Source: a virus
Taxonomy: Duplodnaviria > Caudoviricetes
Strand: one strand, 5' to 3'
DNA: 42,512 nt
IMG/VR virus record: IMGVR_UViG_3300032219_001071
Span: 1 to 42,512 of that record
A program made the position numbers and the translations under genes. Position 1 is the first letter of the stretch. Each line of letters starts with the position of its first letter. Below are positions 8,597-33,903 of the stretch, one piece after another. The notes beneath the pieces were generated by a model that was given only the letters and a program-made list of their open reading frames with translations, searched no databases and had not been told where the DNA came from.

Positions 8597-8604
8597 ATAT
8601 CCTC

Positions 8605-9209: not shown

Positions 9210-9250
9210 TTGTCATCTCCTTTTCAACTATGCTTGACCCTAACCTATTA

Positions 9251-9289
9251 GGGGGGCAGACCGAACGGCCTACCGCAAGAGAGCAGGGA
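9251..9289 (-). promoter_or_regulatory. Conserved leader element, copy B
   Basis: TCCCTGCTCTCTT-GC-GGTAGGCC-GTTC-GGTCTGCC-CCCC on the minus strand. Confidence 0.7.
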
Positions 9290-9396
9290 GAGGGGGTAAT
9301 ACACTGTCTCTCGTCCATACCCCTCAGCCCCTGCCTTATCACAATATCCACATTGTTACTGTGCATGCTATCGTATCCTTCCATTGTATATAAAAT

Positions 9397-9408
9397 GCCA
9401 TCGTCAGG
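9397..9408. repeat. 12-bp box GCCATCGTCAGG, copy 3 of 3
   Basis: Exact match to 4666 and 8176. Confidence 0.85.
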
Positions 9409-9430
9409 TTACCAGAATAGCCGTGCCCTG

Positions 9431-9470
9431 AAAAAGAGATGGAGGAGGATGACCGTAGCCATCCCCCTCC
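9431..9470 (-). terminator. Intrinsic terminator after first leftward gene
   Basis: Minus strand GGAGGGGGATGGC-TACG-GTCATCCTCCTCC-ATCTCTTTTT. Confidence 0.8.
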
Positions 9471-9490
9471 GTTGCGTGCTCGGCTGCCGC

Positions 9491-9808
9491 TTACTTGTCG
9501 GCTGCCGCTACCTCCACTACGCGTGGCTTAGTCCAGCGTCCGTCGCTCATGCGCTCGCTTGTGGCGAAGATGGTGACCTTCGTCCACTGCGCTGCTGCGA
9601 GTGCTGCCGCTGCATCACCGCGTGCGATGACTGGGTAGAAGTGCACCTTGCCCTCGTCGTTCACCTCTTCAATGACGACCTGAGCATAGGTGACATTACC
9701 ACCCTTGTCGTAGGTGATGTCTGCCGTGTCCAGTGCGCCAGTGCGTGGCGCTGCGCTTGGGTGATCGTGCTCGCCTTGCACGATACCCGTGATTTTGGTT
9801 AGAGCCAT
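9491..9808 (-). CDS. First leftward gene, possible OB-fold/SSB-like protein
   Basis: Strong RBS (AGGAAGGAGGAG), own terminator, beta-rich pattern ITG...FYPVIARGDAA...KVTIFA. Confidence 0.65.
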   Translation of the reverse strand: MALTKITGIVQGEHDHPSAAPRTGALDTADITYDKGGNVTYAQVVIEEVNDEGKVHFYPVIARGDAAAALAAAQWTKVTIFATSERMSDGRWTKPRVVEVAAADK

Positions 9809-9843
9809 CGGGCTCCTCCTTCCTGCGCGACTGACGCCGCGCT

Positions 9844-9960
9844 CTTCGGGGGGCAGTACATCCGCCCCCTCAACAAGGCGAGCCCCGCTCTACCCCCCGT
9901 GCTGCCAGCGTATACTGTGTTCCGCTGCTCGCTTCGGGGGGCAGACCCGCAGACTGCCCG
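9844..9960 (-). promoter_or_regulatory. Conserved leader element, copies C and D
   Basis: CTTCGGGGGGCAG at 9844-9856 and 9932-9944 (plus strand), each part of a hairpin. Confidence 0.65.
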
Positions 9961-10075
9961 ATTTTGGAGACGGGGTCTCCCTCGGGCTTTTCTGCGGTAT
10001 AGCCCGTTTGGTGGGGTTACCCAACCTCCGGACTGGACATACCCATCTGATAAGAAACCTTAATGTTGGTAAACC

Positions 10076-10104
10076 CTTGACATGATTGGATATAAATAGA
10101 GGGT
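10076..10104 (+). promoter_or_regulatory. Putative late promoter, copy 1
   Basis: CTTGACAtgatTGGATATAaATAGAGgGT; 24/29 identical to 17833-17861. Confidence 0.7.
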
Positions 10105-10182
10105 GATAGATATACCCTCTAATACGGTTTTACAGATATATAGAGAGTCTTACCCTCTTAGAGGGTGCAAACGAAAGGCAAC

Positions 10183-13100
10183 ATGGCAAAGATTCCAGAT
10201 CCAAAGGAGATCCAGGCCCAGATCGACCGCCTCGTCAACAAGACAGTTGACCAGCAGGTGGAAGGTAAGGCTGCTCCGGCTGCGCCCAAAGCAGGTGCGG
10301 CCAAGGATCCGTTTGCCGGAATGAAGAAAGAGACCCCTAGGGCAGAGGCCCCGACCCCTACACCCCCAGCTGCTGCCGCCCCCTCCGCTCCGGCAGCTGG
10401 GGGTACTTCTGCTCCCGCAGCCCCAGCCAAGCCAGCGCCGTACCAGACCTACATCGAGTACGAGTACGTAGGCGAACCAGACCCAGACTCCGCCTCCTCG
10501 ATGCCGTCGGAGGAGATGAACTACACCGCCGGACAAAGAACAGCGAGTGGCAAGCTTGCCATTGCGCCAGCCGTCAGAGGCGACAAGCGCTCCAACATTG
10601 AGAAGGTCATCGCTGGAGAGCGCACCTCGACCAGCCGCCAGTACGCACCCAAGAAGGGCGTAGTCCCTGGCGCTAACCTTCTCCTTACCGTCCGCGGCAA
10701 GCCAGCTGCGGTCGTCCGCATTACCGCGGTCTACAAGATCATGGGCTCGACCCAGGATGGGTTCGCCGTCCTACAGGATCTCGCCACTGGCACAGAGGTC
10801 AAGAAGCCGATTGAGCGCCTTGCTGCCTCAGAGGGCTACGACGCAGCCGAATACGCCAAGACAATCTACAACACCAAGATCACACCAGGCGAGGCAGTCG
10901 CCGCCGAATACGATGCAGACCTCAACGCCAAGGCCCAGGCAGGCATCGATGCCGCTCAGGGCGCCCCAGCCGAAGCCCCAGTTAGCCGAGCAACAAGCAT
11001 CGGTATGGCACCGGGGGATGTTCCGGTACCTCCTATGGGGGAAACTACGCCCTCCGTGGCTCCTACACCCCTCCCAGAGGCTTCTATTCCACCGGCCCAG
11101 ACCCCCGAAACGCAAGTAACGGCGACGACCCCCACAGATGCCACCGTAGCTCAGGGGACAGAGCAGGGGACTTCTAAGCCTTTGGCCGCAGGTTCGAATC
11201 CTGCCGGTGGCGCCAGCAGCGCGTTCGCATCCATGACGGCAACACCAGAACAAATCAAAGCAACGGCGGCGCCCGCCGACGGCGACTTCGGTATTGAGGG
11301 CGAGACACAGCCGTACACACTGCCAGAAACTGACGGCAGATACGTGGGCATCATCGGTACCGCAGGGCGGCGAGGGGATGGGGCACGACTAACAGAAGGC
11401 GACTACCGATTCCTTGTCAGGTACATCGGCGGGGCGGTCAAGCCAAACGACGTCCTAATCTCCGGCGGCGCAGCGTGGGCTGACCACGTAGCCGTCCAGT
11501 TGTTCCTTGACGGCAAGGTAGGTGGCCTCGTGCTGCACCTTCCGGCAGAGCTCATCGTCGGGCCAGACGGGAAGCTAACGTTTAGGAACGGTGGCTTTGG
11601 TACCGCAGGCAGCACCGCAAACTACTACCACTCACTATTCGACAAGGCCCTTAAGGTCGAGTCCGGGTTCTCGCTAAAGCAGATCCAGGAAGCCATTGAC
11701 CGTGGCGCTGTAGTAACGTTTGGTGATGGCACGCAGGGCAATGAGGGGATGAAAGAACGCAACAGCCTTGTTGCACGCGACGCACGCGACTTCCTGGTGG
11801 CCATGACGTTTGATCCGAACATGAAGACCCAGACCCCCAGGGACGGCGGCACAGCAGACACCTGGCGCAAGCACCGTAAGGGACACCCAGAAGCCAAGCG
11901 TAGATTGGTAGACATCCGCGCTCAGAATCCAGACCCATCAGAAGGTGAGCGACTACGTGCGTTCGACTCAAGGAAGGGCCAGTATGCGCTAGGCCGAGCA
12001 GAAACTGAACAGACTGCGGACATGCTGAACACGATGGCCAAGGCTGAGGGTGAGAAGGGATCGCTTCTGGACAAGGCAGCTCAGAATATTAGAGAACTTG
12101 CCATAACGGAGAGCACAGCGCAGGGGTATAACCTGCAGCAGGCGCTTAAGGCAATGCAAGCTGAGGAGGCAAAGGTCCTTACCAGGGCTAGTAGGATTGC
12201 ATTCCTGCCAACAGACAAGCTTGTTTCAGCCGCTCTCGTTATTGCGATGCTTGACGCACAGGCCCCAGTGAGCGAAGAAATCTATACTATGATCGACGAA
12301 GGGTTCCTACCGAACGTCGGCATGCTTAAACGAGCGCAAGGGCGCGAAATCGACGTGCAAGCTGCAATCCGATTCATGCGCGACCGCCTTCTGACTAAGA
12401 CAGTTGAGCTTGGAAAGGGTGAGAATGACGTCCTGATCACCAGAATCCTTGAAAATGCTGGTGTTCCGCTGAGCGCATTTGCCAAGACCGGCGCAGATGC
12501 CCCAGCATACACATACCCTGGTGCCGATGCGCAGGCTGCAGAGGTCAAAATCAAGCGTGTGAACAACGACCTGAAGCGCGTACTGGCCAGGATCCAGAAG
12601 AATGCCGCAGATCTTGGTCCGCTGATGAGCCACCCAGAAGTGGCGAAGCGTTTGTACCTTGTTACCAGCCTGCTTTCTGGCATCGAGCAGGACATTGACT
12701 CAGAGTTTGCTGGAGAGGCCCTGCCATCCAGGCTTAGAACCGACAGATACTCCGGACTTCCTTACCTGCGCGCACTCGAGCAGATTGATCCTATCTTCGA
12801 ATACATCCGAATGCGTGCCGACATCGATCCTAGCGAGGTCCTTCCGTCTGATCCTAACGACAGAGACCCATACAAGATTGCAGAGGCTGTGCTCGCAGCA
12901 GGTGCTCAGCCACCTCAGTCTCGCGGAAAGCGCGGTAGATACGTTTATGACGAGGCCCAGCTCCACGCTACCTACAAAGCCGGCACTCCATATCGCCGGT
13001 ATGCGTTTGACCTAAACGGAGAGGTGCACCCTCAGTACATGACGCTAGACGAGCTCGGCTTGGTGACCGATAAGTTCGATGGATTTGAGAATCCATACGC

Positions 13101-16100
13101 TGGCCTAGCCTCAGTCAACGAGTTAGTGACAGGCAGAACCAACACAAGCAGGGCTACAATCGGCATGCACATCAGCGCCGACTCTAGCGCACGAGTGGAG
13201 TGGGTATCTCGTATTCCTAAGAAGGAAGTTGAGGTCTTGCGAGCCATCAAGAAGCTCCTTGCCGACAAGCATCCGGCATATATCACCCCAGGAACACCTG
13301 ACGAGGTAGCAATCGTACCTGGTGCGTTCATTCAATACACAAGATATGCCTCACTTGTAGACGATGTTGCAGATTCGACGTACAACAATGTATCGAATGC
13401 CCTTGGCAAAGTCTACCTTGTGGACGTTACCGGCAAGGGAGAGTACCAGGTCACCATTGATGGTGTCACGTACTACATCGGCAAGGGCATGTACGCCTTT
13501 AAGGATGGCGACGAGACCGGCCTTAAGCTCGCACAAAAGGTATCAGAGCTTGAAGTCGACGATGTACCAAACTCACGTGTAAGCAAGCCGTTTAAGCTTG
13601 GTGATAAAGCTCAATACCCACAGCTTACTGGCCTAGGTAAGTTCTTTAGAATCGATATCGACCCTGTCGTGCACATGACCTTTGCGCACAACGACCATAC
13701 GCTGCTCAGCGAGAGAGATGCAGCCCGATTTGGCGAGTCATTTGACCCAGATCAGCAGATCAATGAGCCACTTAAGCCAGCAAAGGGCGGTAAGTTCCAG
13801 GGAATGTACCTGATCAGCCCTGAATACACTCGAGAGCCAGGATTTATCTACAAGACAGTACAGGAGCCGTACCTCCAGTCGTTAACTAACGAAGACGGAA
13901 CACCAATGCTCAGCCCCGAAACAGGAAAGCCTGTCACAATTCGGTTGTTTAGGACTGTCGTGGTTGGCGAACGAGTAAGAATGGCGCCAGGTGTCGAAGA
14001 CTTTGCAGACTACACAGACAACAGCCCAACCAACATCGAGTTTGACGAAGGTCTACGGTTTGTCATCGGCAACGACATTCAGATTGGTAGAACCCTGGAT
14101 GGCGTCGACCTCATCGAGGACAACTACGACGATGTTGTAGCTACGGAGATCCGCCAACAGCAGCCTGTGTTCTTGCAGGGCGCAGAACGCCGTGCAAGAG
14201 ACCGCCAGGAGCGCATCGAGCAGGGCCTTGACCCAGTTGATGATAGTATGTCTGAGTCTGACAAGGCGTATAGAAACTTCACTGAGGCCGGCGAGAGAGT
14301 AGACCACTTCGGTAGAGATTACTCGTTTGCTGACCACGAAGAGTACAACAGCGACTCACCGTTTGCCCCGTCAGTGGCAGAGGCACGTTCTACAGAGCGA
14401 ATGGCTGCGTTGATGCCTGGGGGGGGCGGTGTCGCCCCGGACGAAGCCGACGTAAGAGCCATGCCTGAGTTCACAATGGAAGACTTCATGAGTCCGGAGG
14501 GGCTTACCCCAGAGAGCCAGAAGATTCTAGATCAACTCGTAGCCGATTACTTCTACATCCTACGCGTGCGAGCCCGTGACGTTTCCCAAATGGTACCTAA
14601 CCCCAACTTTGTTGAGCGAGAAGGCCAGATTGGTTGGCGTGCCCTCAGGGGCGTCGTCAAGCTTAGGGGAGAGATGCTTAGGGATCTGGGATATAGAAGG
14701 GCGCTTGCTCTGCACAGGTACCAAACCCGTGAGCCTGCCATCCTAAACTCTGTACTATTTGACATCTTTGCAGTAACCGGCGACAGGGTTGACGTAGCAA
14801 ACGAGGTAACCAAGCAAGTCTACACTGATATTGAGGTAGAAGACAACTTTGTTTCTACCAGGAAGGGTAGGCTATCATTCAGGGATACGCCTATTGTTGA
14901 CGATTCCGACGCTCTAGCAAGGGAGTTTGCCTTTAGCGTAGCACGACGAATGCTACGCGAGCGAACGCCTAATGTCTACGAGACCAGCACCGAATCAATG
15001 GTTGCACGTGAAGAGTCAGCAGAGGAGCGTGCTATTGAGGCGGAAAGAGGCGGCGGATCGGCGGAGGCGGTCACAGACTACAATAGCGAGCTTGCACAAA
15101 TCGCTGCAGAAGCAAACTTGGCTGAAGGCAAGGCCAAACCATATCCATATACCGGAGTGGAGGTTGGAGAATCTCTGGAGCACACCCTTGGAGATGGCAG
15201 GAAGGTCTCCGGGTCGACCGAAGAGGGCAGAGACCTGGTTAAGGCCATCATGGATCAGGAGAGAAGCAACAACCAACTAGATGCAAAGTTTAATAAAGCG
15301 ATGGAATCCTTTACAGAGGAACAGAAAAAGAAAGCTTCTGCAAAGAAGAAGTCGCTAGACGAAGCCGGACAAAAGAGGCTTAATAACCTTATCAGCGCGC
15401 TTGAGAAAGTAGAAGAAGAAGCTGCTATTAAAGCCCTGCGTAGCAGGATTAAGGCCAAGGAAGCGCCTGCACCACAGCCTGTCGAGGCCACAGTGGCCAA
15501 GCAGCCTACACCGCGAGTTAACCGCGTGCTTGATCCTATGAGCGTCGACGAGCGCAGGGCATTTGCGTACAGGGCGTGGGCACTCTACTCTGAGCACGTT
15601 GCAGCAGACGGAGACGGAGACGCTTTCGTGAGGACTATCAATCGTGCACTTGCTGCCGCTACAACGGTGAAGGGCAAAGAGAATAAGTTCAACCAAGTCC
15701 TCAACTTTGTATTTGACAACAACGGTATAGTCATGGTGCCAGACGTTTATTTCACTGACGTCAATGGCAATAAGACCTACCCAGAGCCTAAGGTAAAGAA
15801 CCCACAATACAACTCAGCTGCTAGAAGAACTAGCGCATTTGACGCCACATTCACCGTCGAGGAGATGGAGAAGTTTGTGTCAGAACTGTCAACAATGAGA
15901 ACGAGCAGGTTGGCTGGTGGCCTGCGACAAATCATCAGATACGCCAAGACGCATAATAAGGCCGCAGGCAAGAAGAAACAGCTAAGATTCTACCTAACGA
16001 TTGACCGCGAAACCGGCATGCCAAAGTTCTCGCTGTCAGTATCCCCAACGCGGCCAGGCCAGAAGTTCGTACCTACACCTTATGCTCCGGGGGGAACCGA

Positions 16101-17442
16101 CAGAGAGGGCAAGGTTAAGGCCGGTGGCGAGGCGTTTGACGACCCATTTGCCACCATGCAAGGCGATGCAAACAGACTCCAGTTCCTGACTGCTGACGAC
16201 ATTGAGGCTGTTCTACGAAGCGCCGGAGCCGACTCAGCAATCAAGGTAGTCCGCAAGGAATCTGAAATCCTATCGCAGGCTGAGGGAGTTGCTAGCGCGG
16301 AAGACCTTGCCAGAGCTCAGCCATATGATCTTGTGTTCACCGAAGGATTCGACGCTGACGAAATCTCCGGGAGCCTGTTTGACGAGCTACCGGACCACGT
16401 CAAGGGAGACGACAGGTCTAAGGTTATGAAGATCATTCTTGACGCAGCAGTACGGGCAAGGTTCTTCCAGATCATGAAGACAGATCTAGACCAGCAAGGT
16501 ATCGACAGCAGCTTCATCACTGAGGACGACCTTGACCCAAGCGCGTTCAAGAAAGTGGAAACCCCAGATGGATCGAAGTATGTGCTGAAGCCAAGACTTG
16601 AGCAAGATGGCACGTTTGCTGGCCCATTCTCCAGAAGAGGTAAGGGCCCAGTTAGAACACTCAAGCTTCAAGATATTGATGGAGACGACAGGACTTCTCG
16701 AGCACTTAAGGCCGTGCTTGAGCGAATCAAGCAGGGCGGAACGTACGCTGAGCAGCTAGACATGGACGAGGCAGCACGACAAGCCGCTAACGTCCTGGAT
16801 TTCCGCAACAAGGCTCTTGGCCTTGATAGGGACTCTGCACGTCCAGCCAGCACAGAACCGATCGACATGGTGTCGAATAACGTTCTCGGACCATCAAGCA
16901 AGCTCCCAAGATTCTCACCTGGCGCAAAGGCTGGTATTGCTGGCGGTACGATTGCCGGCACTCTTGCGGCCTACCTGCAGTTCGGCGCTGACGAGCAGGC
17001 CAAGGAGATTGCCCTTGCCTCACTACCAAGCCAGGTTGCATTCGAAGCTCTTGGCGCAGTGCCTAAGGTCGGCGGTCCTGTAGCAGCTGCTACGGGCCTG
17101 GGCGTGGCATATGCGACTGGCGGGGACATGCTTCGGGCGCTTGCTGGCATTACAGGCTCCGTAGTCGGCGGTATCGCAGGCACTGGTGCCGGTCTCTTCA
17201 CTGGACCTGGTGCGTTCGTAAGCGGCCTTGCAGGCAGCACGGCTGGGTACATGATTGCAGACAACCTGTACTCAGCGGTCACTGGCAAGTCACCAGCCAG
17301 CCAGGTACCAAACAACATTGCAAGATCTAACTCGCTCATGGAGCAGAGGATGAGAACCCCGGGCGTGAGGGACTTCATGCCAGAGGCACCTATGCCTGTA
17401 GTTAATAGGGATATAGCTGCACTAGAGAGGATGGGCGGATAA
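10183..17442 (+). CDS. Giant (2419 aa) polyvalent, probably ejected virion protein with ASCH-like and SLOG-like domains
   Basis: GAAAGG RBS; ASCH-like IAGERTSTSR...VRITAV...LAASEGY (about 10600-10870); SLOG-like VGIIGTAGR...LISGGAAWADHVA...RNSLVA...GGTADTW (about 11340-11920); C-terminal Gly/Ala hydrophobic helices. Confidence 0.85.
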   Translation: MAKIPDPKEIQAQIDRLVNKTVDQQVEGKAAPAAPKAGAAKDPFAGMKKETPRAEAPTPTPPAAAAPSAPAAGGTSAPAAPAKPAPYQTYIEYEYVGEPDPDSASSMPSEEMNYTAGQRTASGKLAIAPAVRGDKRSNIEKVIAGERTSTSRQYAPKKGVVPGANLLLTVRGKPAAVVRITAVYKIMGSTQDGFAVLQDLATGTEVKKPIERLAASEGYDAAEYAKTIYNTKITPGEAVAAEYDADLNAKAQAGIDAAQGAPAEAPVSRATSIGMAPGDVPVPPMGETTPSVAPTPLPEASIPPAQTPETQVTATTPTDATVAQGTEQGTSKPLAAGSNPAGGASSAFASMTATPEQIKATAAPADGDFGIEGETQPYTLPETDGRYVGIIGTAGRRGDGARLTEGDYRFLVRYIGGAVKPNDVLISGGAAWADHVAVQLFLDGKVGGLVLHLPAELIVGPDGKLTFRNGGFGTAGSTANYYHSLFDKALKVESGFSLKQIQEAIDRGAVVTFGDGTQGNEGMKERNSLVARDARDFLVAMTFDPNMKTQTPRDGGTADTWRKHRKGHPEAKRRLVDIRAQNPDPSEGERLRAFDSRKGQYALGRAETEQTADMLNTMAKAEGEKGSLLDKAAQNIRELAITESTAQGYNLQQALKAMQAEEAKVLTRASRIAFLPTDKLVSAALVIAMLDAQAPVSEEIYTMIDEGFLPNVGMLKRAQGREIDVQAAIRFMRDRLLTKTVELGKGENDVLITRILENAGVPLSAFAKTGADAPAYTYPGADAQAAEVKIKRVNNDLKRVLARIQKNAADLGPLMSHPEVAKRLYLVTSLLSGIEQDIDSEFAGEALPSRLRTDRYSGLPYLRALEQIDPIFEYIRMRADIDPSEVLPSDPNDRDPYKIAEAVLAAGAQPPQSRGKRGRYVYDEAQLHATYKAGTPYRRYAFDLNGEVHPQYMTLDELGLVTDKFDGFENPYAGLASVNELVTGRTNTSRATIGMHISADSSARVEWVSRIPKKEVEVLRAIKKLLADKHPAYITPGTPDEVAIVPGAFIQYTRYASLVDDVADSTYNNVSNALGKVYLVDVTGKGEYQVTIDGVTYYIGKGMYAFKDGDETGLKLAQKVSELEVDDVPNSRVSKPFKLGDKAQYPQLTGLGKFFRIDIDPVVHMTFAHNDHTLLSERDAARFGESFDPDQQINEPLKPAKGGKFQGMYLISPEYTREPGFIYKTVQEPYLQSLTNEDGTPMLSPETGKPVTIRLFRTVVVGERVRMAPGVEDFADYTDNSPTNIEFDEGLRFVIGNDIQIGRTLDGVDLIEDNYDDVVATEIRQQQPVFLQGAERRARDRQERIEQGLDPVDDSMSESDKAYRNFTEAGERVDHFGRDYSFADHEEYNSDSPFAPSVAEARSTERMAALMPGGGGVAPDEADVRAMPEFTMEDFMSPEGLTPESQKILDQLVADYFYILRVRARDVSQMVPNPNFVEREGQIGWRALRGVVKLRGEMLRDLGYRRALALHRYQTREPAILNSVLFDIFAVTGDRVDVANEVTKQVYTDIEVEDNFVSTRKGRLSFRDTPIVDDSDALAREFAFSVARRMLRERTPNVYETSTESMVAREESAEERAIEAERGGGSAEAVTDYNSELAQIAAEANLAEGKAKPYPYTGVEVGESLEHTLGDGRKVSGSTEEGRDLVKAIMDQERSNNQLDAKFNKAMESFTEEQKKKASAKKKSLDEAGQKRLNNLISALEKVEEEAAIKALRSRIKAKEAPAPQPVEATVAKQPTPRVNRVLDPMSVDERRAFAYRAWALYSEHVAADGDGDAFVRTINRALAAATTVKGKENKFNQVLNFVFDNNGIVMVPDVYFTDVNGNKTYPEPKVKNPQYNSAARRTSAFDATFTVEEMEKFVSELSTMRTSRLAGGLRQIIRYAKTHNKAAGKKKQLRFYLTIDRETGMPKFSLSVSPTRPGQKFVPTPYAPGGTDREGKVKAGGEAFDDPFATMQGDANRLQFLTADDIEAVLRSAGADSAIKVVRKESEILSQAEGVASAEDLARAQPYDLVFTEGFDADEISGSLFDELPDHVKGDDRSKVMKIILDAAVRARFFQIMKTDLDQQGIDSSFITEDDLDPSAFKKVETPDGSKYVLKPRLEQDGTFAGPFSRRGKGPVRTLKLQDIDGDDRTSRALKAVLERIKQGGTYAEQLDMDEAARQAANVLDFRNKALGLDRDSARPASTEPIDMVSNNVLGPSSKLPRFSPGAKAGIAGGTIAGTLAAYLQFGADEQAKEIALASLPSQVAFEALGAVPKVGGPVAAATGLGVAYATGGDMLRALAGITGSVVGGIAGTGAGLFTGPGAFVSGLAGSTAGYMIADNLYSAVTGKSPASQVPNNIARSNSLMEQRMRTPGVRDFMPEAPMPVVNRDIAALERMGG
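11140..11215 (+). tRNA. tRNA-Arg(UCU) nested in the giant CDS
   Basis: Acceptor GCCACCG/CGGTGGC, D arm GCTC-AGGGGACA-GAGC, loop CT-TCT-AA, T arm GCAGG-TTCGAAT-CCTGC, G73, CCA; 76 nt. Anticodon stem is weak (two G-U, one A-G). Confidence 0.85.
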
Positions 17443-17861: not shown

Positions 17862-17875
17862 ATTAAGGAGTCTTA

Positions 17876-23242: not shown

Positions 23243-25499
23243 AGACAAACTAAAGATTTCGTCTGGGTCGTTTGTTGACGGGAAGGAAGTTCCTTCCATG
23301 ATTACAACCGATCCTAACGTCGTCACTCCGGGTAACATCCAGGGTATCAAGAAAGCTATCGAAACAGCCCGCAAGGAGATCCGCGGCCAGAAGACTACAG
23401 CAGTTGCTGCACCTGGCACGCCAATCAAGACAGAAGCAACGCCAGCTGCTACGAAAGGTCGCAAGGCACGCGCACTCCCCAGCGCTGTTGCTAATGGTCG
23501 CACGAAGAAGGCTGGCTCAGGACGCACAATCAATGACGCCATCATCTCCGGCGGCAAGATGCGCGTTGCCAAGATCAATCCAAAGTTCGACCGACTGCAG
23601 GCTCTCACCGCCGAGCAGAAAAAGGGCATGTCCCTGGAGCGCCAGCGCCTCAACCAGCTTGGCGAGGTGGCTGAGGAGAACGAAGATTACTTGCTCGCTC
23701 TCGAGGCGATGAACCGAAAGCAACTCGTCGAGCCTGAACAGAACCGCATGCGTGCAATCTACCGACGCTACGACCACTACTTCCATCCAAACACCTTTAC
23801 CCTTGGTGGCGCAGACCACTGGGCAGAAGACCCAAGCGCACGGCTCTCAGGCCGCTCGCACGTGTCGGTCAACCTGCACGCTTCCTACGTCCAGATCCCA
23901 GCTTCACTGCAGGCTGTAACCCCTGTCATTAACTACGTACCAACGGGCCCTACCGAAGGCGAGCGAAACCAGGCTTCACGCAGAGAGCGTCTCATGTACG
24001 CTTGGTGGGATGCCAATGACATGGACCTAAAGCTCGAAGAGGCAGCTCTTCTCAAGGCCCTGTACGGTAACACAGCTGCCAAGATCTTCTGGGATCCGAT
24101 CAAGAAGATGCCACGCATCCAGATCGTCGACACCCCAGAGAACCTCTACGTTGGCTACGGAAGCTCTGACTACACTCGTGTAGACTGGGCTCTTTACAGC
24201 TACGGTCAATCCCCTCAGGCTGTACTTGAGGACTACGGCGTTGACGTTATCCCGGTACGAGATGGCAACCAGTGGTTCCCATATACCTCGTCCAGCACGC
24301 ATGACGACCCAATCGCCAGCATCTACCTGAACAGCTACCACCGCGATCCGATCCGCTACCAGACGGCGTACGACCAGATGAAGATCGAGATCATGGACTA
24401 CTGGTACAAGCACCCTACTACCCCAGGAAAGCCACCGCTCGTGTGCAACGCTATCATCGTCGGCAACACCGTCGTGAAGCGCACTGAGCACCCTGAGCTT
24501 GAGGGTATTATCCCTTACATCATGCTTCGGAACAGCATGATCCCAGGCAGCCCATACGGCAAGCCTGAGCTGTACGACATCGAGCAGCTCCTACGGGAGA
24601 AGGACGAGAAGATCACGGCGCAAGCCCAGATGATCCACTCCGTCGTTGGCGGTCAGATGTGGCAGCTCACTGGCGCTGAGGCTCCCGATGAGGTACCGGC
24701 CAACGCCATTCCAAAGCCAAACCAGGTCGCTACCCCTGGGGCCGGTAACCGCATTGAATCCATCAACCCATTCATTCCTCAGTTCCAAGTAGAGGATTAC
24801 AACAAGCGTATCGACCGTGAACTTGCAGTCGCCTCTGGCTTGAACGATCTTCTACTTGGACTTGCTCCATCTAGCGTACTTGGATCGAGCCGTGCGATTG
24901 CGCAGCTCATGGCCAACTACGAAGCTCGTATCTCCCCGAAGCGCAAGCTCCTCTACAGCTGGATCCAGCAGGTATGGGAAGTATGCGCACGCGTGTGGGA
25001 GAACAAGGATAAGGCAGTTGCCAACGTCATCGATGGCGAATATTCCATCATGCTGACGCCTCCAGAGCTGACACCACGAGACACCATCGAGCTCGCTCAG
25101 ACCGCCATTAACCTGGTGCAAAACCGACTCTGGTCGGCAGAGCGTGCGATGGATCGCATGGGCGTAAGCGACCCAGAGGGCGAAAAGGACCTGATCCGCG
25201 ACGAGCAGACAGACGCCACGCTCAACCCAGCTGCGGTACAGACGATGGGTGCGCTCATCCAGATGTTCTCGCAGATGCAGCAGCAGGCTCCTGAGGCAGC
25301 TCAGCAGCAGGCAGAGGCAGGGCAGGCAAGCGCCATGGAGGCTATGGCCAGCATGAATCCACCGCAGGGTGGCATGCCAATGCTGAACGCTCCAACCGAT
25401 GGCGCCGTTCCGCCACAAGAAGCCCTTCCTCAGAACGCGCAAGAGGGCGGGGCAGATCTAATGTCAATGCTTCAATCAATGCAGGGAGGTAATGAATAA
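23235..25499 (+). CDS. Portal protein with basic N-terminal and Gln-rich C-terminal extensions
   Basis: Follows TerL; helical fold pattern, PYG.PEL.DI..L, SG....LLG..., S.ERAM..MG..DPE.E...IR.E. Confidence 0.85.
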   Translation: MPKDKLKISSGSFVDGKEVPSMITTDPNVVTPGNIQGIKKAIETARKEIRGQKTTAVAAPGTPIKTEATPAATKGRKARALPSAVANGRTKKAGSGRTINDAIISGGKMRVAKINPKFDRLQALTAEQKKGMSLERQRLNQLGEVAEENEDYLLALEAMNRKQLVEPEQNRMRAIYRRYDHYFHPNTFTLGGADHWAEDPSARLSGRSHVSVNLHASYVQIPASLQAVTPVINYVPTGPTEGERNQASRRERLMYAWWDANDMDLKLEEAALLKALYGNTAAKIFWDPIKKMPRIQIVDTPENLYVGYGSSDYTRVDWALYSYGQSPQAVLEDYGVDVIPVRDGNQWFPYTSSSTHDDPIASIYLNSYHRDPIRYQTAYDQMKIEIMDYWYKHPTTPGKPPLVCNAIIVGNTVVKRTEHPELEGIIPYIMLRNSMIPGSPYGKPELYDIEQLLREKDEKITAQAQMIHSVVGGQMWQLTGAEAPDEVPANAIPKPNQVATPGAGNRIESINPFIPQFQVEDYNKRIDRELAVASGLNDLLLGLAPSSVLGSSRAIAQLMANYEARISPKRKLLYSWIQQVWEVCARVWENKDKAVANVIDGEYSIMLTPPELTPRDTIELAQTAINLVQNRLWSAERAMDRMGVSDPEGEKDLIRDEQTDATLNPAAVQTMGALIQMFSQMQQQAPEAAQQQAEAGQASAMEAMASMNPPQGGMPMLNAPTDGAVPPQEALPQNAQEGGADLMSMLQSMQGGNE

Positions 25500-28300
25500 T
25501 GGCCCGACGTGGTAGCTTCGGCAGATCAGGCACAACGCAGAACCTTTCTGTACTCGTGTACCAGCTGGTCAAGGAGCAGATGAGCACAGAGCTTACGAAC
25601 ATCCTTAACGCCTACGAGACCAATATGAAGGATGGTAGATACACCACCCAGTTCAATGGTCAGAACGTAGACGGCGAGTACGTCATGACGTACATGTCTC
25701 AGATGCTTGCTGGGTTCCCACCCGGATCAACTGAGTACGAGACCCTTAACTCGCAGCTGTCAACATTCCGCTCACGGTACCAGCGCGATGTCCAGAACCT
25801 TGTTATTGACTCTATGAATAACGGAACCCAGATTGACTTCGGCCTTCTCGGGCCAGCGTTCTCCAATAAGGGGATTGCAGAGGTAGAGCTTTCCGACGTC
25901 CGTAACTGGGCAGATGGTGAGATCGCTTCCTTGCTCGAGAACGGTGATAGCGCCCAGGCGGACAAGATCAAGGGCGCAGTCTTCGTTGCCGGGTTTAACG
26001 TTGAGAACGATGGCAAGGTTGCCGCTGTCAACAATGAGTCTATGACCAGAGGGCAGTACAACAACTGGCTGAAGGGTCAGCTGCAAAGTGCTCTCGACGC
26101 TGGCTATACAAAGGACAGCGAGGCATATCGTGGCATCCTCAAGCTACAGGCTGAGGCCGCGAAGCAGGCCAAAGTTGAGGGTGAAGGTAAGGCTGCAGAG
26201 TCAGTTACCAAGCAGTTCAACTCCATTAAAACTGCTTTGAACGATAAGGCCAGAGACATGTTCCAGGCATACGCTGATGCCAACGGTATCAACATGGATG
26301 AGATCAACGCGCTCATCGGCCAGGCTAAGGGCGACTTTGTTTACTACGAAACGATGCAGACTCTTGCTGGCCAGATTGGCAAGGGTGGGGAGTACGATGG
26401 ATTCTACGGCGACGTAACAAGATTTGCTGGAGACCAGCTACTCTCAGAGTTCAACGCCCTGGTTGTAGGTAGCCAGGCTGAGCTCATTGACCTTAGAGAG
26501 AACGGCTTAGGCGGTCTTTCCGAGGAAGATAGGGTTAGAATCAAGGGTGACCTTGACGGTGAGATTGCCACTGGTAGAGCATACGTTTCACAAAGCGGCA
26601 TACCATTTAGCGCCGGTGGGAGCCTGAGCGCACTTGATTCTTTGTATACTGGCCTAAGCTCTGCTGGCGTGTACTTTAGAAATGATGGGTCAACAAAGGT
26701 TGGGCAAGGCGGTCATCCTGAAGCTGTGTTTGACGTCATGAAGCAGTTCGGTGATCAGCTTAAAGATGTTGAGGGGTATGCTCTTCTAAAGTCTCTTGCA
26801 CAAGGCAACATCCCAGTAACTCTAATCGAAGGATCTAGCGAGCTGATCCAAGATAACAACCCGCCAGACGGCGTGATTGGCGCAGCAGAATGGAAAACAG
26901 CTTTCGAGAATGGCCTTTCACGAGACACGTTTGCTGAGATTGAGGAAGCTGCCTCGACAAAGGCCGCTACACTTGTAATGCCATCTGTTGGTGGATCGGC
27001 AACGATATCACCAAAGAGTTTGGTATCGATTGTTCTCGGTGCCCACATGAGCAGCCACCTTCTTGCGACTGGTGGTCAGGTTGTGATGAACTCAACTGGC
27101 ATGGTCTCAATCACCGACAACGCAGCGCCTGGCGGCCCTCTTGCACGCCCTGCCCTCATCAAGGTAGGTGGCAAGACATATGGCGGTATCAGCGAGCCTA
27201 TGACCATTAGCCAAGTCACCGAAGGGTCTCAAGTCGCGTCAGACTGGGCGACAACAAATACTAACATGACAATTAATGTTTACAGAACTGGCGGCCCTGG
27301 CGACAAGAACGCAGGGATTTACGTTAGCATTGTTGGAGGTCTAGAGGGCCCGAACGGCAAGGCACCAAATGGCATTATCATTCCTTACGACAAGTTCAAG
27401 CGTTGGATGCGCGATGTCGGAGGTATCGATATTGACGATAGAACCTTCATGGTACCTAACTCGCAAGAGCCAGCCATGATTAGGGTTGCGTCTACCGATA
27501 GAATGACGGCAGAGGGCATCGACATCAACAAGGCCCTTGCAGGCATCACTAACCCAGACAGCGAGTACTTCATTGGTAGATCCACCACTGGCAAGGGAGC
27601 AGGCATCATGCAGCTCACCGAGGCTGGCGTTACCGGCCTGCAGGATCCTGGGTTTATTACTGATCCAGCCAACGTCAAGGGCGCTATCGACGAGGCGTTC
27701 AAGAATCCATCGGACATTCTCGCTAAGGCCACTGCGTATGCAGCTGCAAGAGGCGAGCAGGTAAGCCAGAAGGACTTGATCAAGGCCGTTTATGCCAGCA
27801 TCCCTGGTATTCCTACGACGTACAACATGGACCTTCAGGCTGAGCAGTTCGGGAAGTACGGCGACGTCGGTACGAGAATTCAGAATCTATTCCCCAACAT
27901 CAAGACTGGAGCGATCACCCCTCAGATCCCAGCTGGTGTGGGAACCGTCCCTGGCACAACGGCTCCAGCTCCAGCTATCCCAAGTGGTCCAGTGCCTGAA
28001 TGGCGCCAGCCTCAAGTCGGGCCAAACAGTGGGCGCAGGCCTGAGATCCCAACCAGCACGGGGCCTGGACCTTCGATTCCGAATATGGGTGGAGGCTCTG
28101 GCAAGAAGGACGACGGCGGTCCATTCGGGTTCCTTGGGGAAGTGTTCCGGAATATCCCAAATATTTTCGGAGCTCCAAAGGTCGGCACTACAAAGCCAGC
28201 CGAAACGAAGCCTGTTACCGCCAAGCCGAAGGAGACCAAGCCGGTATCGTACTCGCTTACTCCTAGAAATAGACCGCCTGGAACCGGGGGTGCCGTTTAA
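25499..28300 (+). CDS. Large structural protein, probable internal/ejection protein (933 aa)
   Basis: Coupled to portal; helical N-half, Pro-rich C-terminus; no catalytic motif seen. Confidence 0.7.
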   Translation: MARRGSFGRSGTTQNLSVLVYQLVKEQMSTELTNILNAYETNMKDGRYTTQFNGQNVDGEYVMTYMSQMLAGFPPGSTEYETLNSQLSTFRSRYQRDVQNLVIDSMNNGTQIDFGLLGPAFSNKGIAEVELSDVRNWADGEIASLLENGDSAQADKIKGAVFVAGFNVENDGKVAAVNNESMTRGQYNNWLKGQLQSALDAGYTKDSEAYRGILKLQAEAAKQAKVEGEGKAAESVTKQFNSIKTALNDKARDMFQAYADANGINMDEINALIGQAKGDFVYYETMQTLAGQIGKGGEYDGFYGDVTRFAGDQLLSEFNALVVGSQAELIDLRENGLGGLSEEDRVRIKGDLDGEIATGRAYVSQSGIPFSAGGSLSALDSLYTGLSSAGVYFRNDGSTKVGQGGHPEAVFDVMKQFGDQLKDVEGYALLKSLAQGNIPVTLIEGSSELIQDNNPPDGVIGAAEWKTAFENGLSRDTFAEIEEAASTKAATLVMPSVGGSATISPKSLVSIVLGAHMSSHLLATGGQVVMNSTGMVSITDNAAPGGPLARPALIKVGGKTYGGISEPMTISQVTEGSQVASDWATTNTNMTINVYRTGGPGDKNAGIYVSIVGGLEGPNGKAPNGIIIPYDKFKRWMRDVGGIDIDDRTFMVPNSQEPAMIRVASTDRMTAEGIDINKALAGITNPDSEYFIGRSTTGKGAGIMQLTEAGVTGLQDPGFITDPANVKGAIDEAFKNPSDILAKATAYAAARGEQVSQKDLIKAVYASIPGIPTTYNMDLQAEQFGKYGDVGTRIQNLFPNIKTGAITPQIPAGVGTVPGTTAPAPAIPSGPVPEWRQPQVGPNSGRRPEIPTSTGPGPSIPNMGGGSGKKDDGGPFGFLGEVFRNIPNIFGAPKVGTTKPAETKPVTAKPKETKPVSYSLTPRNRPPGTGGAV

Positions 28301-31300
28301 TGCCACTGTACTACGATGATCCGCCACGAAGACTACCTGGTACTGAGGTAAGTACCAGGGATCTTCGGATTAATCTTGACATTGGCGGAGACCAGAAGGT
28401 AAAGGATCTGCGACCAGACGAGCAGCTGTTCGCTGCAATGGGTGGCGCGGTAACCGATACAATCAAGACTGGTATCTCCATTGGCAGCAAGCTGCCTATC
28501 CTTCCTGAAGCGGTAAAGCTGGTTGCCGATAGCCCAGTTGGCTGGGTGGTTGGCAGGGGGCTTGAAGCCTTGCAGCTTGCGTCTAACGTCGTAAGCACTG
28601 GTGGGGCGTTCGTGCGCAAGGCAGTTACCCGCAAGGAAGATCTTCCAGCAGACATCCAAAGAATGATTAACTCCGGCGCTGACGAGATGGACATTCTTGC
28701 TTACATGGTCAAGACGCAGCGGGCATGGAGCGACTCTCCAGAGGCCAACCTAGTATTCAGCCTCCTTACAGATCCACTTACGTACACCCCTGCCGTGCTA
28801 GGCAAGGTTGGTATGCTTAAGCCCATTGTTGGCGTAGGCACCGGAGTTGCAGGCGGCGTAGCTGGCGGAGTTACAGCTGGACTCATGGGGCTTGGCCCTA
28901 TCGGCGCAGTTGGCGGCGGTATTATCGGTGGCGTTGTCGGCGCAAGAAAAGCTAGCCAGATTGCTGGACGTGCTATTGAGCGCGCAGGAAAGCTACAGAG
29001 AGTTGAGCAGAGGGCAGCCCTAGCTGAAAAAGCAATAGTTCCAGCCGCAGCCCGCGAGGCTGTTGAGGTTATTCCCGCCTCTATTGAGAAAGTACCTGAA
29101 GCTGTAAGTTTCCTAAAGACAGTATTCAAGAAACTTAAGACAGCTGAAGGTAAAGCAGACGCGGCAAAGCCTGGATTCATTGATCAGGTCTATGTGGATT
29201 CGATTATGGCCCAGATCACTAGGGCTGTACTTAGGACTGGCTCCGGTTATTCGGATGAGGTTAAAGAAGCAGTTATTTTCTTTTCCGGCGACAAGAACGC
29301 CGTAAATGCAGCTGAAGACGCCGCCAGAAAAGCCTTCGATGCCGGGAAGATTACGGCGGAAGAAAGGGTCCGAAGAGTCAAGGAAGCAACAGACGAGGCA
29401 GCAAAGCATCAAGCTGTACTGGACGCAGAGTTTGGGCCTATTAGGGAGCAGATCCGTAAGGCCATCGACGACGCACTTGTAACGCCAGAAGTTCCACAGG
29501 TTGTACCGAAGTCCCCTTCGTCATTTGGCAAGGAATCGGAGATCGCAGCATTTGGCGGTCCACTTACTTCTTCAGAAAAACTTGCCATTGCTCTTAGCAA
29601 GCCAAGAGGCATGAACCTTAGCGAGAGACTCGCTGTTGGGCGACAGGCCACTCAGGCTATTGCCAAGGCAGAGAAAGTTCTTGAGGGCGCAACAGACCCA
29701 GGGATTATCCAGGCGCAGAAGAAGATTATCTCTAACGCACAAGAGGCGATGAAGGACATCAACGCCATTGACGAAGGGATTATCTACGGAACATACAACG
29801 CACTTAGAGCGATGACTGAGGGCGCAAGCGGGCCGATGAAGTACCTAGCCTCTGCCTTCACTGTACCTGCCCACATGCTTATGCAGAGAGAACTAGGTGG
29901 AGTTAGACTAAATGAGCGCGTTGCTCGGTACGGCGCCGGCATCTTCGGAGACGGCATAACCTCTGCGTTCAACGAGCTTGTAGGTAGAGCTATTGCCAAC
30001 TTCGGCATGATTGGCATGCAGAACGTCTTCCTTGGTAAGAACACATTCAGAGCAGCTAACGTAGCTGAGCGCATTGCCAAGGCATATTTCGACGCCAAGC
30101 AGGACCTCCGTATCCTTAGCGGCTCCGGAGCAGATGTTAAGTTCACGCCACAAGAAATCATTGAGCAGATGCGCACGAACGTTTCTGCTGCGGCTGCTCA
30201 GGGCGGAGACGCTGGAATCGTTGGCATGTTTGACGCAACAAACCTTGAAGAGCTCACAAGGCGCATCGAGTTCCTATCCAGCGTAGACCAGCAGGCTGCC
30301 GCGCTAACTCCTGGACGAGGTACCATTCCGCAGATTAAGGCTCTTGCCAACTACATCGAAAGCGAAATGAACATCGGTGACATCCAGGCTATTAGACGTG
30401 CCAATCCGGATGCCCCTGCTGGCCAGATGTTTGAGAAGACGTTTGTGTCCCAGATTAAGGAGTCAGGAGTAGAAGCATTCCACCAAGCCGGCGTTGATCA
30501 AATCAAGAACCAGATGGTCAAGCTTACATTTGAGGTTCGCAACAAGCAAGTTGCTAGGGCCATGTTCGAACAGCACGCCAAGTCGGCCACCATTGCCCTT
30601 GGGCAGAAGTGGGACGAGGTCGCAGATGCATGGCGAAGGACGTTCGAAGAGAGATTTGGCAAGTTCTACGATGAGCGCGGTCTTCCAAAAAGTGAGAAGG
30701 CTATCGACGAAGCGGCAGAAGAGATGCTGTTTGTTCAGTCAATCGGCTACTCTGGTGCAAGCGAAGTCACCGGAACTGTTAACAGACTCTTCGATAGAGT
30801 ACAAGCAGCTGACCCAACGTTGATTGCAGAGATCGGGCAAGAGTCATTTGAGCAGCTACAGAACATCTTTGCAGAGATTGGCGGTAAGGTAAACGTAGTA
30901 TCCAAGTACCATCTGTTTAGCGACACGGCCACAGCGCTGCGTCATGCCTACATGCTCATTGAGAAGTCAACTCCAGAAGCTACTTCAAGGTATGCAGACG
31001 ATGAGGCCCGACTTGTAACGGTAAACATTGATGATAACGTTAGCTCCAGTGTAGCCCGTAGGGCGGGCTCTTACAGCGACGTAGCCACGATCAAGCGACA
31101 GCTTAAAAAGATGGCTAGCAATCCTAAGGCGCCAAGAGGATACGTTAAGATCCTCAACAAACTCATTGATGGGCTTGACAATACAGGCAACCTTGACGAT
31201 GTACGCGCCATGTGGGCTAAGACCGCGGCTGATGAGCTCGACGACGTTAGGGCTTTCGGCGGCACCAAGAACCACAAGGAGATCTACGAGTTCCTGCGCG

Positions 31301-33903
31301 AGGCTATTGACCAGGGTCTTACCTCTAAGAAGCTTTCAGATCGGCAGATCGCCAGACTGTCGACAGCGCTCCGCATTATCGGTTACGATGCAGACTTCAT
31401 TGCAGGTCTCAACAACGGTGCCTACAGGGTTGCCCTTGCGCCAACCAACAACATGATCTACAAGCCTTCCTTCCTAGAGACAGCTGCTGCGCAAGGCGGC
31501 AGGAGAACAGGCATGTTCTCCAACAAGATTGTCCCGTTCATCGACAACACCAGCGAAAGCGTAATCAAGGTGTCAAAGAGAATGGTGAAAAACCCAGAGT
31601 ACAAGTCCACATTCCTTCAGGAGTTTGGCACAAAGATGTTTAGCGACATCCCCCAGAAGTACATTACAGCGTCTATTAGACGGAGAATGGCTTCGTACCT
31701 AGCTCGCGGCGGCCTTGGCGAAGAGGCCGTAGATGCAGTACTCGACGATCTTGTTCAGAGAGGTATCGCAAACGGCGTGTCCGCAAGAGGGCTCGAGACA
31801 ACTGAACATTACACAGCGTTCAAGAATGCTATCGATAGGGTTGGCGGAGTCGGTGCTTATGAGACTTTTGTCCAGTCATACATGCGCAATACTATTGACG
31901 GGGCAACCAAGTTCGACCCAACCAAGGCAGTAATGTACGCCTTCCGTGGCGACAAGAGCACCATCGGTCTTACGCAGTACGCGACCGGTGGAGCAAAAGT
32001 ATGGATGCCAACTATTGCAGGGTTTACAGATAAGCTCTACCCGACCCTTAAGTTTAAGATGAACCCAATCTACTTTATTCAGGAGTGGCTTGAGAGCCCT
32101 ACCCTGAACGCCGCTCGAGGTGTCGACGTTGATACCTTAGCAAGCATCAGCCGCGATGGAGCTATTTCCAACGTGAGCGCTGGCCAGTTAAGGAACCTCA
32201 GCGATGTCGGACCGGAGACTCAGAACTATCTAGACAACGTCAACTTCCTAGCCGTGTTCCGCAACGACGCTATTGCCCAGGCAACCACTGGTCGATACGA
32301 TGACGTAGTCGCGGCGACTGGCCTGTGGCAGAATATCAAAACTGGTCGGTCACTCGGCAAGCTTGCTCAGAAGAAGGAGAAGTACCGAGACGCATTGGCA
32401 CTCGACCTTACTGCAAAGACGTTCTCTGAGACGCTAAGAAACAGAGACTTCAACACTTGGTCAGCCCTAGCTGCACACTACGGCACGACCGACGCCCGCG
32501 CAATCTTTACTAACTATGTGAACTACAGGCTTAGACTTGGCGACACGAAGCGTGTGCTCTCCGACATCGAAGCATCCAGGCCAGCAGGTGTTGGCTTCAA
32601 CCGCATCCCTGACCCAGAAGGTAACGTCCGGTTTGCCGCTAAGGTAGAACTAATCACTGGCAACAGCAGACTCCCTGAAGAGTTGGCCGGCCAGTTTGGC
32701 GGGCAGAACCTTGGCCCAGAGGAACTCTTTGAATACTACGTCCAGAACCCACACATCTGGAGAGCAGAGCTGGACAAGCACATGATCTCCCTGCAGGACG
32801 CTGGCTACGACATGACTGAGATCCTACCTGTTGCTGAGACCCTTCGCAAGAGGATCATCAGGCTGGAGGATGCCATTAAGGAGCAGGGCTACGTTCCAGA
32901 AGATATGCGTAGCTTCCTACCCACCGCCGGCCTTGCCGATGCGTCTGACAAGCTGGGAGAGATGCTTAGTAGGCTTGACATCCAGAGCATTGAGCTGATC
33001 CACAAGCAGTCTGCTCTTAGGACCTTGGCCAGTGCGTCTGGCATGATCAACCCCGAGGCTATGACCGACCTTGGCGACATGGTAGTACAGACCTTGCTAG
33101 TCGGCAAGGGATTCTCGACCGAGGCGCAGAACGTTATCGACGCTGTGAACAGATCGATTGACGCTGCCAAGAACAGTGGCGCCGACATGGTAGCGGAGGG
33201 TCGTGCGTTCTCTGAGGCTGTAAGCGACGCAATGCGCAAAGAGATTGCAGCTGATCCGAGCCTGATCAAGGTGTTCCAAGAGAACAGTCTGGAGATCATC
33301 TCCAACCGCAGCGCAGAAGAGACCGTGTACAATGCGTTCCAGTACGCATACACCAAGGCTCTCGAGCAGGCAAACAAGACGACATACTACGCGTCTCAAC
33401 GCTCGTTCTTCGAGAGGACCATCAACCACCCAATGCTTGGATTCTACCCATACAGCTACATGTTCAAGAAGATCCTGCCCGAGTTTATCCAGCTGCTCTT
33501 CAAGGGTGGCTTTGGTGTTAAGGCCCCAGGCGCTGGATACTCCGCATACATGAATGTCCGTGACTACGTAGAGGCCCAAATTGAGGAAGATCCATCGTTC
33601 CGTCGAGCACTAGAGGCAAAGGCAGATCTGATGTATATGACAACGATGCTTTTCCCAGGCGTTCCATGGGATCTGTCGGTTGTGCCGTCTCCTATTCTAA
33701 GAAACGTCTACAAGAGAATCATGACGGACAAAGACATTACTCTTCAGAACATCCTCATTGACGACACCATCAGTAAGTTCTCTGACTTCGGCCCATTCAC
33801 CTCGATCCCTATGGCACTTGAAGGTGGGCTGCAAGCATTTGAAGATGATAGCCCGAAGCCTATCAGACGGGTTCCGTCTGCATTCCCTTCGAGCTTGGAT
33901 TAA
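28300..33903 (+). CDS. Large probable ejection protein (1867 aa)
   Basis: TDPLTY motif then Gly-zipper hydrophobic segment; Ala-rich helices; C-terminal A.KTTYY...FYPYSY pattern of podovirus-like internal proteins. Confidence 0.7.
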   Translation: MPLYYDDPPRRLPGTEVSTRDLRINLDIGGDQKVKDLRPDEQLFAAMGGAVTDTIKTGISIGSKLPILPEAVKLVADSPVGWVVGRGLEALQLASNVVSTGGAFVRKAVTRKEDLPADIQRMINSGADEMDILAYMVKTQRAWSDSPEANLVFSLLTDPLTYTPAVLGKVGMLKPIVGVGTGVAGGVAGGVTAGLMGLGPIGAVGGGIIGGVVGARKASQIAGRAIERAGKLQRVEQRAALAEKAIVPAAAREAVEVIPASIEKVPEAVSFLKTVFKKLKTAEGKADAAKPGFIDQVYVDSIMAQITRAVLRTGSGYSDEVKEAVIFFSGDKNAVNAAEDAARKAFDAGKITAEERVRRVKEATDEAAKHQAVLDAEFGPIREQIRKAIDDALVTPEVPQVVPKSPSSFGKESEIAAFGGPLTSSEKLAIALSKPRGMNLSERLAVGRQATQAIAKAEKVLEGATDPGIIQAQKKIISNAQEAMKDINAIDEGIIYGTYNALRAMTEGASGPMKYLASAFTVPAHMLMQRELGGVRLNERVARYGAGIFGDGITSAFNELVGRAIANFGMIGMQNVFLGKNTFRAANVAERIAKAYFDAKQDLRILSGSGADVKFTPQEIIEQMRTNVSAAAAQGGDAGIVGMFDATNLEELTRRIEFLSSVDQQAAALTPGRGTIPQIKALANYIESEMNIGDIQAIRRANPDAPAGQMFEKTFVSQIKESGVEAFHQAGVDQIKNQMVKLTFEVRNKQVARAMFEQHAKSATIALGQKWDEVADAWRRTFEERFGKFYDERGLPKSEKAIDEAAEEMLFVQSIGYSGASEVTGTVNRLFDRVQAADPTLIAEIGQESFEQLQNIFAEIGGKVNVVSKYHLFSDTATALRHAYMLIEKSTPEATSRYADDEARLVTVNIDDNVSSSVARRAGSYSDVATIKRQLKKMASNPKAPRGYVKILNKLIDGLDNTGNLDDVRAMWAKTAADELDDVRAFGGTKNHKEIYEFLREAIDQGLTSKKLSDRQIARLSTALRIIGYDADFIAGLNNGAYRVALAPTNNMIYKPSFLETAAAQGGRRTGMFSNKIVPFIDNTSESVIKVSKRMVKNPEYKSTFLQEFGTKMFSDIPQKYITASIRRRMASYLARGGLGEEAVDAVLDDLVQRGIANGVSARGLETTEHYTAFKNAIDRVGGVGAYETFVQSYMRNTIDGATKFDPTKAVMYAFRGDKSTIGLTQYATGGAKVWMPTIAGFTDKLYPTLKFKMNPIYFIQEWLESPTLNAARGVDVDTLASISRDGAISNVSAGQLRNLSDVGPETQNYLDNVNFLAVFRNDAIAQATTGRYDDVVAATGLWQNIKTGRSLGKLAQKKEKYRDALALDLTAKTFSETLRNRDFNTWSALAAHYGTTDARAIFTNYVNYRLRLGDTKRVLSDIEASRPAGVGFNRIPDPEGNVRFAAKVELITGNSRLPEELAGQFGGQNLGPEELFEYYVQNPHIWRAELDKHMISLQDAGYDMTEILPVAETLRKRIIRLEDAIKEQGYVPEDMRSFLPTAGLADASDKLGEMLSRLDIQSIELIHKQSALRTLASASGMINPEAMTDLGDMVVQTLLVGKGFSTEAQNVIDAVNRSIDAAKNSGADMVAEGRAFSEAVSDAMRKEIAADPSLIKVFQENSLEIISNRSAEETVYNAFQYAYTKALEQANKTTYYASQRSFFERTINHPMLGFYPYSYMFKKILPEFIQLLFKGGFGVKAPGAGYSAYMNVRDYVEAQIEEDPSFRRALEAKADLMYMTTMLFPGVPWDLSVVPSPILRNVYKRIMTDKDITLQNILIDDTISKFSDFGPFTSIPMALEGGLQAFEDDSPKPIRRVPSAFPSSLD

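Follow-up and report, generated by a model that had tools for sequence, protein, structure and literature searches.

Can 76 nucleotides inside a large protein gene of a phage be read both as a segment of that protein and as a working tRNA? This question is raised by the window (the whole stretch of DNA analysed, 42,512 nucleotides), a complete virus genome of 42.5 kb with a single tRNA match, which also encodes a terminase, a portal, a capsid protein, DnaB and an exonuclease. The nearest cultured capsids are about 27% identical to its own. The features concerned are the following:

10183..17442, plus strand: 2419-aa polyvalent-like gene, first large gene of the plus-strand structural block (ORF, translation)
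10173..10178, plus strand: Shine-Dalgarno-like GAAAGG preceding the giant gene's start codon (sequence)
11140..11215, plus strand: tRNA-Arg(UCU) with encoded CCA, covering codons 320-344 of the giant gene, with U at position -1 (11139) (ARAGORN, Rfam, ORF frame)

Judging from sequence comparison, these nucleotides are likely expressed in two forms, as a segment of the protein and as a working tRNA, and the nested tRNA is a real and conserved gene, probably a functional one.

Regarding the RNA, ARAGORN called one tRNA in the window, tRNA-Arg(tct) at 11140-11215 on the plus strand, and the Rfam family RF00005 matched the same positions over its full length with a score of 62.9 bits (E = 1.9e-11; cut-off 29 bits). 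No other Rfam family exceeded its cut-off in 8600-11400. These results, the sequence and the tRNA count of the record bear out an earlier note on this DNA, which had described a 76-nt tRNA with perfect acceptor, D and T stems, G73 and CCA, had taken it to be the only one of the genome and had proposed scoring it with tRNA-finding programs. Arginine tRNAs are recognized by A20, C35, U or G at position 36, G or A at the discriminator position and CCA, and all of these are present in the sequence. The A20 named in that note holds under the conventional numbering (G18 G19 A20 C20a) and fails by plain counting, where base 20 is C.

The anticodon stem, on which the earlier note is silent, is weak, with the pairs G·U, G·U, G-C and G-C and an A31·G39 mismatch; through the mismatch and the two G·U pairs it falls short of the five pairs of an RF00005-type tRNA. 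The mismatch need not be decay, since intergenic phage tRNA-Arg(UCU) genes also have 31·39 mismatches. Four distinct ones from unrelated viral contigs carry A31·G39, although they were retrieved using a search pattern that itself contained the mismatch, and the tRNA-Arg(UCU) of the cultured Rhodococcus phage Peregrin is mismatched at 31·39 too. This tRNA and that of Pseudomonas phage ZC03, which has the two G·U pairs of the window tRNA, are 83-86% identical to it but intergenic. Phage tRNAs have been presented as counters to anticodon nucleases (PMC10264068), and this is a possible reason for the first gain of the tRNA-Arg(UCU). As for A31·G39 as an escape from such nucleases, the accessible part of that source contains nothing on tRNA-Arg stems.

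Concerning the protein, the frame 10183-17442 is open from ATG to stop (2419 aa) and includes the tRNA in frame and on the same strand, as had been claimed, in the form of residues 320-344, ATVAQGTEQGTSKPLAAGSNPAGGA. The other two sense frames across the tRNA meet stops within 2 and 11 codons. The surroundings of the tRNA peptide are:

10447..10962, plus strand: N-terminal folded module, weakly ASCH-like, swapped for other modules in relatives (Pfam, model, relatives)
10960..11310, plus strand: predicted disordered Pro/Ala/Thr linker holding the tRNA, residues 260-376, pLDDT under 50 (AlphaFold model)
11341..11913, plus strand: SLOG (YpsA-like) domain (Foldseek match to 2nx2, E = 4.7e-4, probability 1.0; Atlas features)

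In the AlphaFold model the tRNA peptide is in a low-confidence stretch flanked by two folded domains, which agrees with the linker that the earlier note had placed between ASCH-like and SLOG-like domains. The SLOG part of that description stands with the Foldseek match, and the ASCH part is weak (Pfam E = 0.023, under the cut-off). No family match was found in the C-terminal 1800 residues. The closest kind of protein is the polyvalent phage proteins of Iyer, Aravind and colleagues (PMC9503650). As far as the accessible part of that work goes, the giant protein resembles them in its size, its multidomain build with SLOG, its exchangeable N-terminal modules and its place at the head of the structural block, and differs in that one exchangeable module is an RNA gene; that it is packaged and injected as they are may be surmised from its gene position. 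Several conflict-related domains are joined in one large chain in this family, an assignment based on SLOG in the window, on circularly permuted YpsA and DUF7831 in relatives, and on the weak ASCH match.

It should be noted that stop-free frames are common in tRNAs (47 of the 74 other distinct tRNAs of the loci examined have one), so an open frame by itself means little and the comparison with relatives decides. The same tRNA is in frame in all 16 contigs that carry it, namely the window, eight from IMG/VR and seven from metagenomes, with 12 distinct 196-nt haplotypes. This set was gathered by a protein-led search (seven viral loci, six of which reach the site, all six with the tRNA) and by pattern searches, including three DNA scans with the tRNA itself as the pattern, which decayed copies would escape. 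At least 208 codons are open upstream of the tRNA in 15 of the 16 contigs. In the exception, L136, a stop lies 35 codons upstream. The locus is thus a whole tRNA in a conserved open frame on the same strand, of the selB/selC type.

An assembly error could imitate such an arrangement, and so could two separate genes with the tRNA between them and the stop lost. The JGI calls that start giant proteins downstream of the tRNA would fit two genes, as would the stop in L136, but this stop is within 20 bases of the start of a contig of 1.3 kb, and the DNA frame is open upstream for five of the JGI proteins. Moreover, homologues without the tRNA hold the same domains in one frame, and pN is well below pS on both sides of the tRNA where the 5' modules are homologous (downstream, between the window and L006, pS is 0.66 and pN 0.20). 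The frame is also open in independent assemblies with unrelated flanks, which rules out the misassembly that the earlier note had named as a refutation. Hence, we give this explanation a negligible probability. One contig from four sequencing runs, which are probably DNA and come from relatives only, bridges 11104-11374 with 11 differences.

The tRNA occurs in two lineages. Giant proteins of lineage A are at least 64% identical to that of the window; those of lineage B can be aligned with it at the tRNA peptide alone, apart from a weak match at the C-terminus, and the peptide is present in all seven full-length lineage B proteins, down to 51% protein identity. Among 17 homologues, six have the tRNA peptide, two are JGI calls beginning downstream of it and nine are without it. 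These nine are at 31-37% identity, and in them the shared linker motifs continue uninterrupted, which indicates that the tRNA is a movable insert. Two complete relatives have no tRNA at all. The terminases of the tRNA-less phages are closer to that of the window (87-91% identity) than those of lineage B (70%), so the tRNA has been either transferred or repeatedly lost. Its site in the giant gene varies from codon 57 (P0177) to about codon 470 (L006) with different neighbouring modules, and its immediate 5' flank exists in several unrelated versions. A search for decayed copies in tRNA-less relatives, with 18 sequences compared, gave just two short matches of 14 and 16 nt, both in G001 and taken as chance.

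The N-terminal 500 residues of the giants (P0001-P0018, P0162-P0178) are made of freely exchanged modules common to both lineages, which are ASCH-like, DUF7831, circularly permuted YpsA, SLOG and several unnamed ones. The pattern searches also returned seven loci with ordinary intergenic tRNAs of unrelated viruses, used for comparison only, and the unrelated, GC-rich contig L008, excluded from the counts because it shares only the 3' 28 nt of the tRNA. Its tRNA-Arg(UCU) (L008:9953-10028) has the same 3' 28 nt and a C4·U69 mismatch, a combination that a hybrid att junction could show.

The 76 nucleotides themselves are held in a way that points to the RNA. The local DNA match between the window and lineage B is exactly 77 nt, from U-1 through the tRNA to the CCA. 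Inside the tRNA there are no synonymous differences at about 21 sites in any of seven pairs, with a downstream pS of 0.14-0.72. At the DNA level the tRNA varies solely at D-loop base 20a (C, A or T), through two changes that each alter the residue. Two further variants of the tRNA peptide among 18 proteins, deduced from protein, would affect base 4, where pairing would be kept, and T-loop base 59. The lack of synonymous change together with the residue-changing variation at 20a means that the RNA is kept, not the peptide. The stems are invariant in the 16 DNA copies, with no compensatory pair change, which makes a covariation analysis impossible. The dual coding proposed in the earlier note therefore finds support in the relatives, where the frame is open, both sides are under protein-level constraint and the 76 nt are held at the RNA level.

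Nevertheless, the same region could be read as a non-functional block of homology that has spread recently and gives domain shuffling a place for crossovers. The identity of the tRNA island between lineages is 99-100% against 72-74% in DnaB DNA, and the flanks switch exactly at the tRNA ends in many combinations, as in the hybrid L136, where a 5' flank like that of L012 from lineage B is fused to a lineage A 3' part. As a caveat to the invariance of the tRNA, recent recombination has also flattened synonymous change at another place in the giant gene, codons 1676-1750 between the window and L006. On the other hand, a homology block would not restrict changes to bases that a tRNA tolerates, with two different ones at 20a, would not keep the peptide throughout the diverged lineage B and would not raise AGA in other genes. 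As a full explanation we consider it improbable, and a crossover role may be a true side effect.

Codon usage gives indirect support for the use of the tRNA-Arg(UCU) in translation. In the three large late genes of the tRNA-bearing genomes G000, G006 and G007, AGA makes up 29.7, 27.5 and 30.7% of the arginine codons, against 8.2 and 12.2% in the complete tRNA-less genomes G001 and G013, a two- to threefold higher use of this rare codon. In the window, the giant gene has AGA at 40 of 159 arginine codons, 38 of them downstream of the tRNA, and the other two genes are the following:

25499..28300, plus strand: 933-aa late gene, AGA at 17 of 34 arginine codons, likely client of the tRNA (codon counts)
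28300..33903, plus strand: 1867-aa late gene, AGA at 34 of 113 arginine codons, likely client of the tRNA (codon counts)

In these two genes, which do not hold the tRNA, AGA accounts for 51 of 147 arginine codons versus 4 of 121 and 17 of 152 in the tRNA-less relatives, and it is the most shifted of 57 codons in both comparisons. Across giant genes, the AGA share is 13-35% in ten tRNA-bearing records and 6-13% in eight without the tRNA; ACA and AAA are unshifted, and GGA and CGA are lower. The capsid, portal and DnaB genes of the window avoid AGA (0/18, 1/41 and 0/28). The relative G015, with an intergenic tRNA-Ile(UAU), served as a control: ATA is raised to 36/208 versus 6/435, rank 1 of 57, and AGA ranks 25. 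There are exceptions, as the tRNA-bearing giant L137 has only 13% AGA, AGA ranks 3 of 57 in pooled lineage B, and three records assigned to neither tRNA group, with AT-richer third positions, reach 19-24%. Furthermore, the tRNA-bearing lineages in this test are only two, so its P values overstate independence.

The tRNA-Ile(UAU) genes of the relatives G019 and G015 (L190:1501-1576 and L191) are ordinary intergenic genes amid small genes, and in relatives with this tRNA ATA is raised even in DnaB (12/31). G027, where ATA reaches 44% in the large genes, may have such a tRNA-Ile(UAU) outside its record.

Considering these data, it is fairly probable that the nested tRNA works and is cut by host enzymes from a fraction of the late mRNA, supplying AGA decoding to the three large late genes. 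Copies of this mRNA that are translated would give the full-length giant protein. In ribosome-free copies the cloverleaf could fold and RNase P could cut between U-1 and G+1, after which the tRNA would be trimmed to its encoded CCA and charged by the host ArgRS. RNase P prefers U at -1, and U is found there in all 16 tRNA-bearing contigs; this and the encoded CCA make excision from the mRNA plausible. The folding predictions for the window are unfavourable. The isolated strand folds no better than its shuffles (z = -1.39), its minimum-energy structure is without the D and anticodon arms, and the predicted acceptor-stem pairing in a context of plus/minus 40 nt is 0.05 in the window and from 0 to 1.0 in seven relatives. 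This fits an occasional release, yet it also counts against excision. The tRNA would be a further swappable module in the variable N-terminal region, and it would be tolerated since one of its frames lacks stops and any residues can be accommodated in the linker. After its gain, AGA codons likely accumulated and would make its loss hard, and the destroyed mRNA copies are likely a cost rather than an evolved switch.

The tRNA could also be functional but transcribed from its own promoter inside the giant gene, with no mRNA sacrificed. All the evidence of function fits this equally; besides, an upstream linker motif shows conserved synonymous sites and a similar-looking A-rich motif lies upstream in lineage B. 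However, tRNA-less homologues have the upstream motif too, it lies at varying distances from the tRNA (in P0177 the tRNA precedes the box-2 motif), and the several unrelated 5' flanks argue against a dedicated adjacent promoter. No sigma-70-like plus-strand site was found in 8500-18000 by a promoter and terminator scan that misses the promoter of the giant gene too. An internal promoter is thus unlikely, although the likeliest of the alternatives.

An evolved feedback switch, which would limit the giant protein or free the tRNA when AGA decoding is slow, is still less probable than the homology block. It could draw on the 38 downstream AGA codons that depend on the tRNA and on the similar model proposed for selB/selC in the accessible part of PMC8124441, but in ten giants the nearest upstream AGA is 188 (the window), 201, 8, 95, 52, 201, 99, 88, 225 and 89 codons away, with no conserved cognate codon, and the position of the tRNA varies. 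Since homologues manage without the tRNA, the coupling or limiting role suggested in the earlier note is not sustained.

Attachment sites derived from tRNA genes are common, one example being a tRNA-like match at the integrase of Microbacterium phage Min1, so the tRNA might be an attachment site taken from a host tRNA gene, with integration splitting the gene. This is highly improbable given that the tRNA gene is complete and not a 3' fragment, and that there was no integrase among the 20 ORFs scanned and no other ORF of integrase size. The anticodon-arm 24-mer and the 3' 28-mer had no exact match in the GTDB collection, which may lack the host.

Returning to excision from the late mRNA, the nearest precedent is selC (tRNA-Sec), nested in the selB ORF of Alphaproteobacteria and described from bioinformatics as the first bacterial case (Mukai 2021, PMC8124441). 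As far as the accessible part of that paper goes, both cases have a whole tRNA read in frame on the same strand, and an either/or RNase processing was proposed there. In contrast, the bacterial selC forms a short extension at the C-terminus of the factor dedicated to it, and the window has an ordinary elongator tRNA in the N-terminal linker of an unrelated giant protein of a phage, with more than 1600 codons downstream, movement between lineages and a codon-usage signal elsewhere. In Armadillidium mitochondria, a 60-nt tRNA-Lys inside cox1, cited in the same source, is also fully within the coding region in direct orientation, although in a compact organelle genome. A literature search with little coverage of subscription journals found no case of a phage tRNA nested in an ORF. 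The arrangement is rarely described, and the comparative evidence of its use goes beyond the selC/selB precedent, itself without functional evidence.

We also lean, if only slightly, towards a broader proposal, that in this phage family a tRNA gene is handled like an exchangeable in-frame 'domain' of a polyvalent protein, which is excised from late mRNA, moves between lineages with the modules and has reshaped codon usage in other late genes, and which is one of a wider hidden class of linker-nested phage tRNAs. Gene callers would keep such tRNAs systematically hidden by masking either the tRNA itself or the gene's N-terminal part. tRNA and protein genes are usually assumed not to overlap, and JGI calls of the giants drop about 300 residues; tRNA masking likely hides nestings such as this one. 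The natural experiment with tRNA-Arg, tRNA-Ile or none ties a nested tRNA to the use of its codon in other genes and is relevant to the long-standing question of why tRNAs are carried by phages, and the giant gene offers a simple, testable system for the competition between the ribosome and RNase P on one transcript. The JGI calls of P0006, P0009, P0156, P0157, P0161, P0165-P0167 and P0172 begin just downstream of the tRNA position, and the ENA, NCBI and Logan calls of giants read through it.

Other elements were observed in or near the giant gene. The linker motifs at 11020-11139, adjoining the tRNA on its 5' side, mark module junctions, and their synonymous sites are conserved also where homologues lack the tRNA. 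A separate element is:

10362..10404, plus strand: in-frame 12-bp hairpin with a C-rich loop (base-level conservation, also in tRNA-less homologues)

In G001 and G002, with giant proteins of only about 31% identity, this hairpin is conserved at 100% over 42-43 nt; seven more records have it at 92-100% identity, one variant still pairing as G·U, and lineage B gave no match. As a guess, the hairpin may act as a signal in DNA or RNA, for instance for packaging or processing. Finally, a near-perfect, operator-like palindrome at 10152-10166 lies directly ahead of the ribosome-binding site and has a match in 9 of 18 related sequences.
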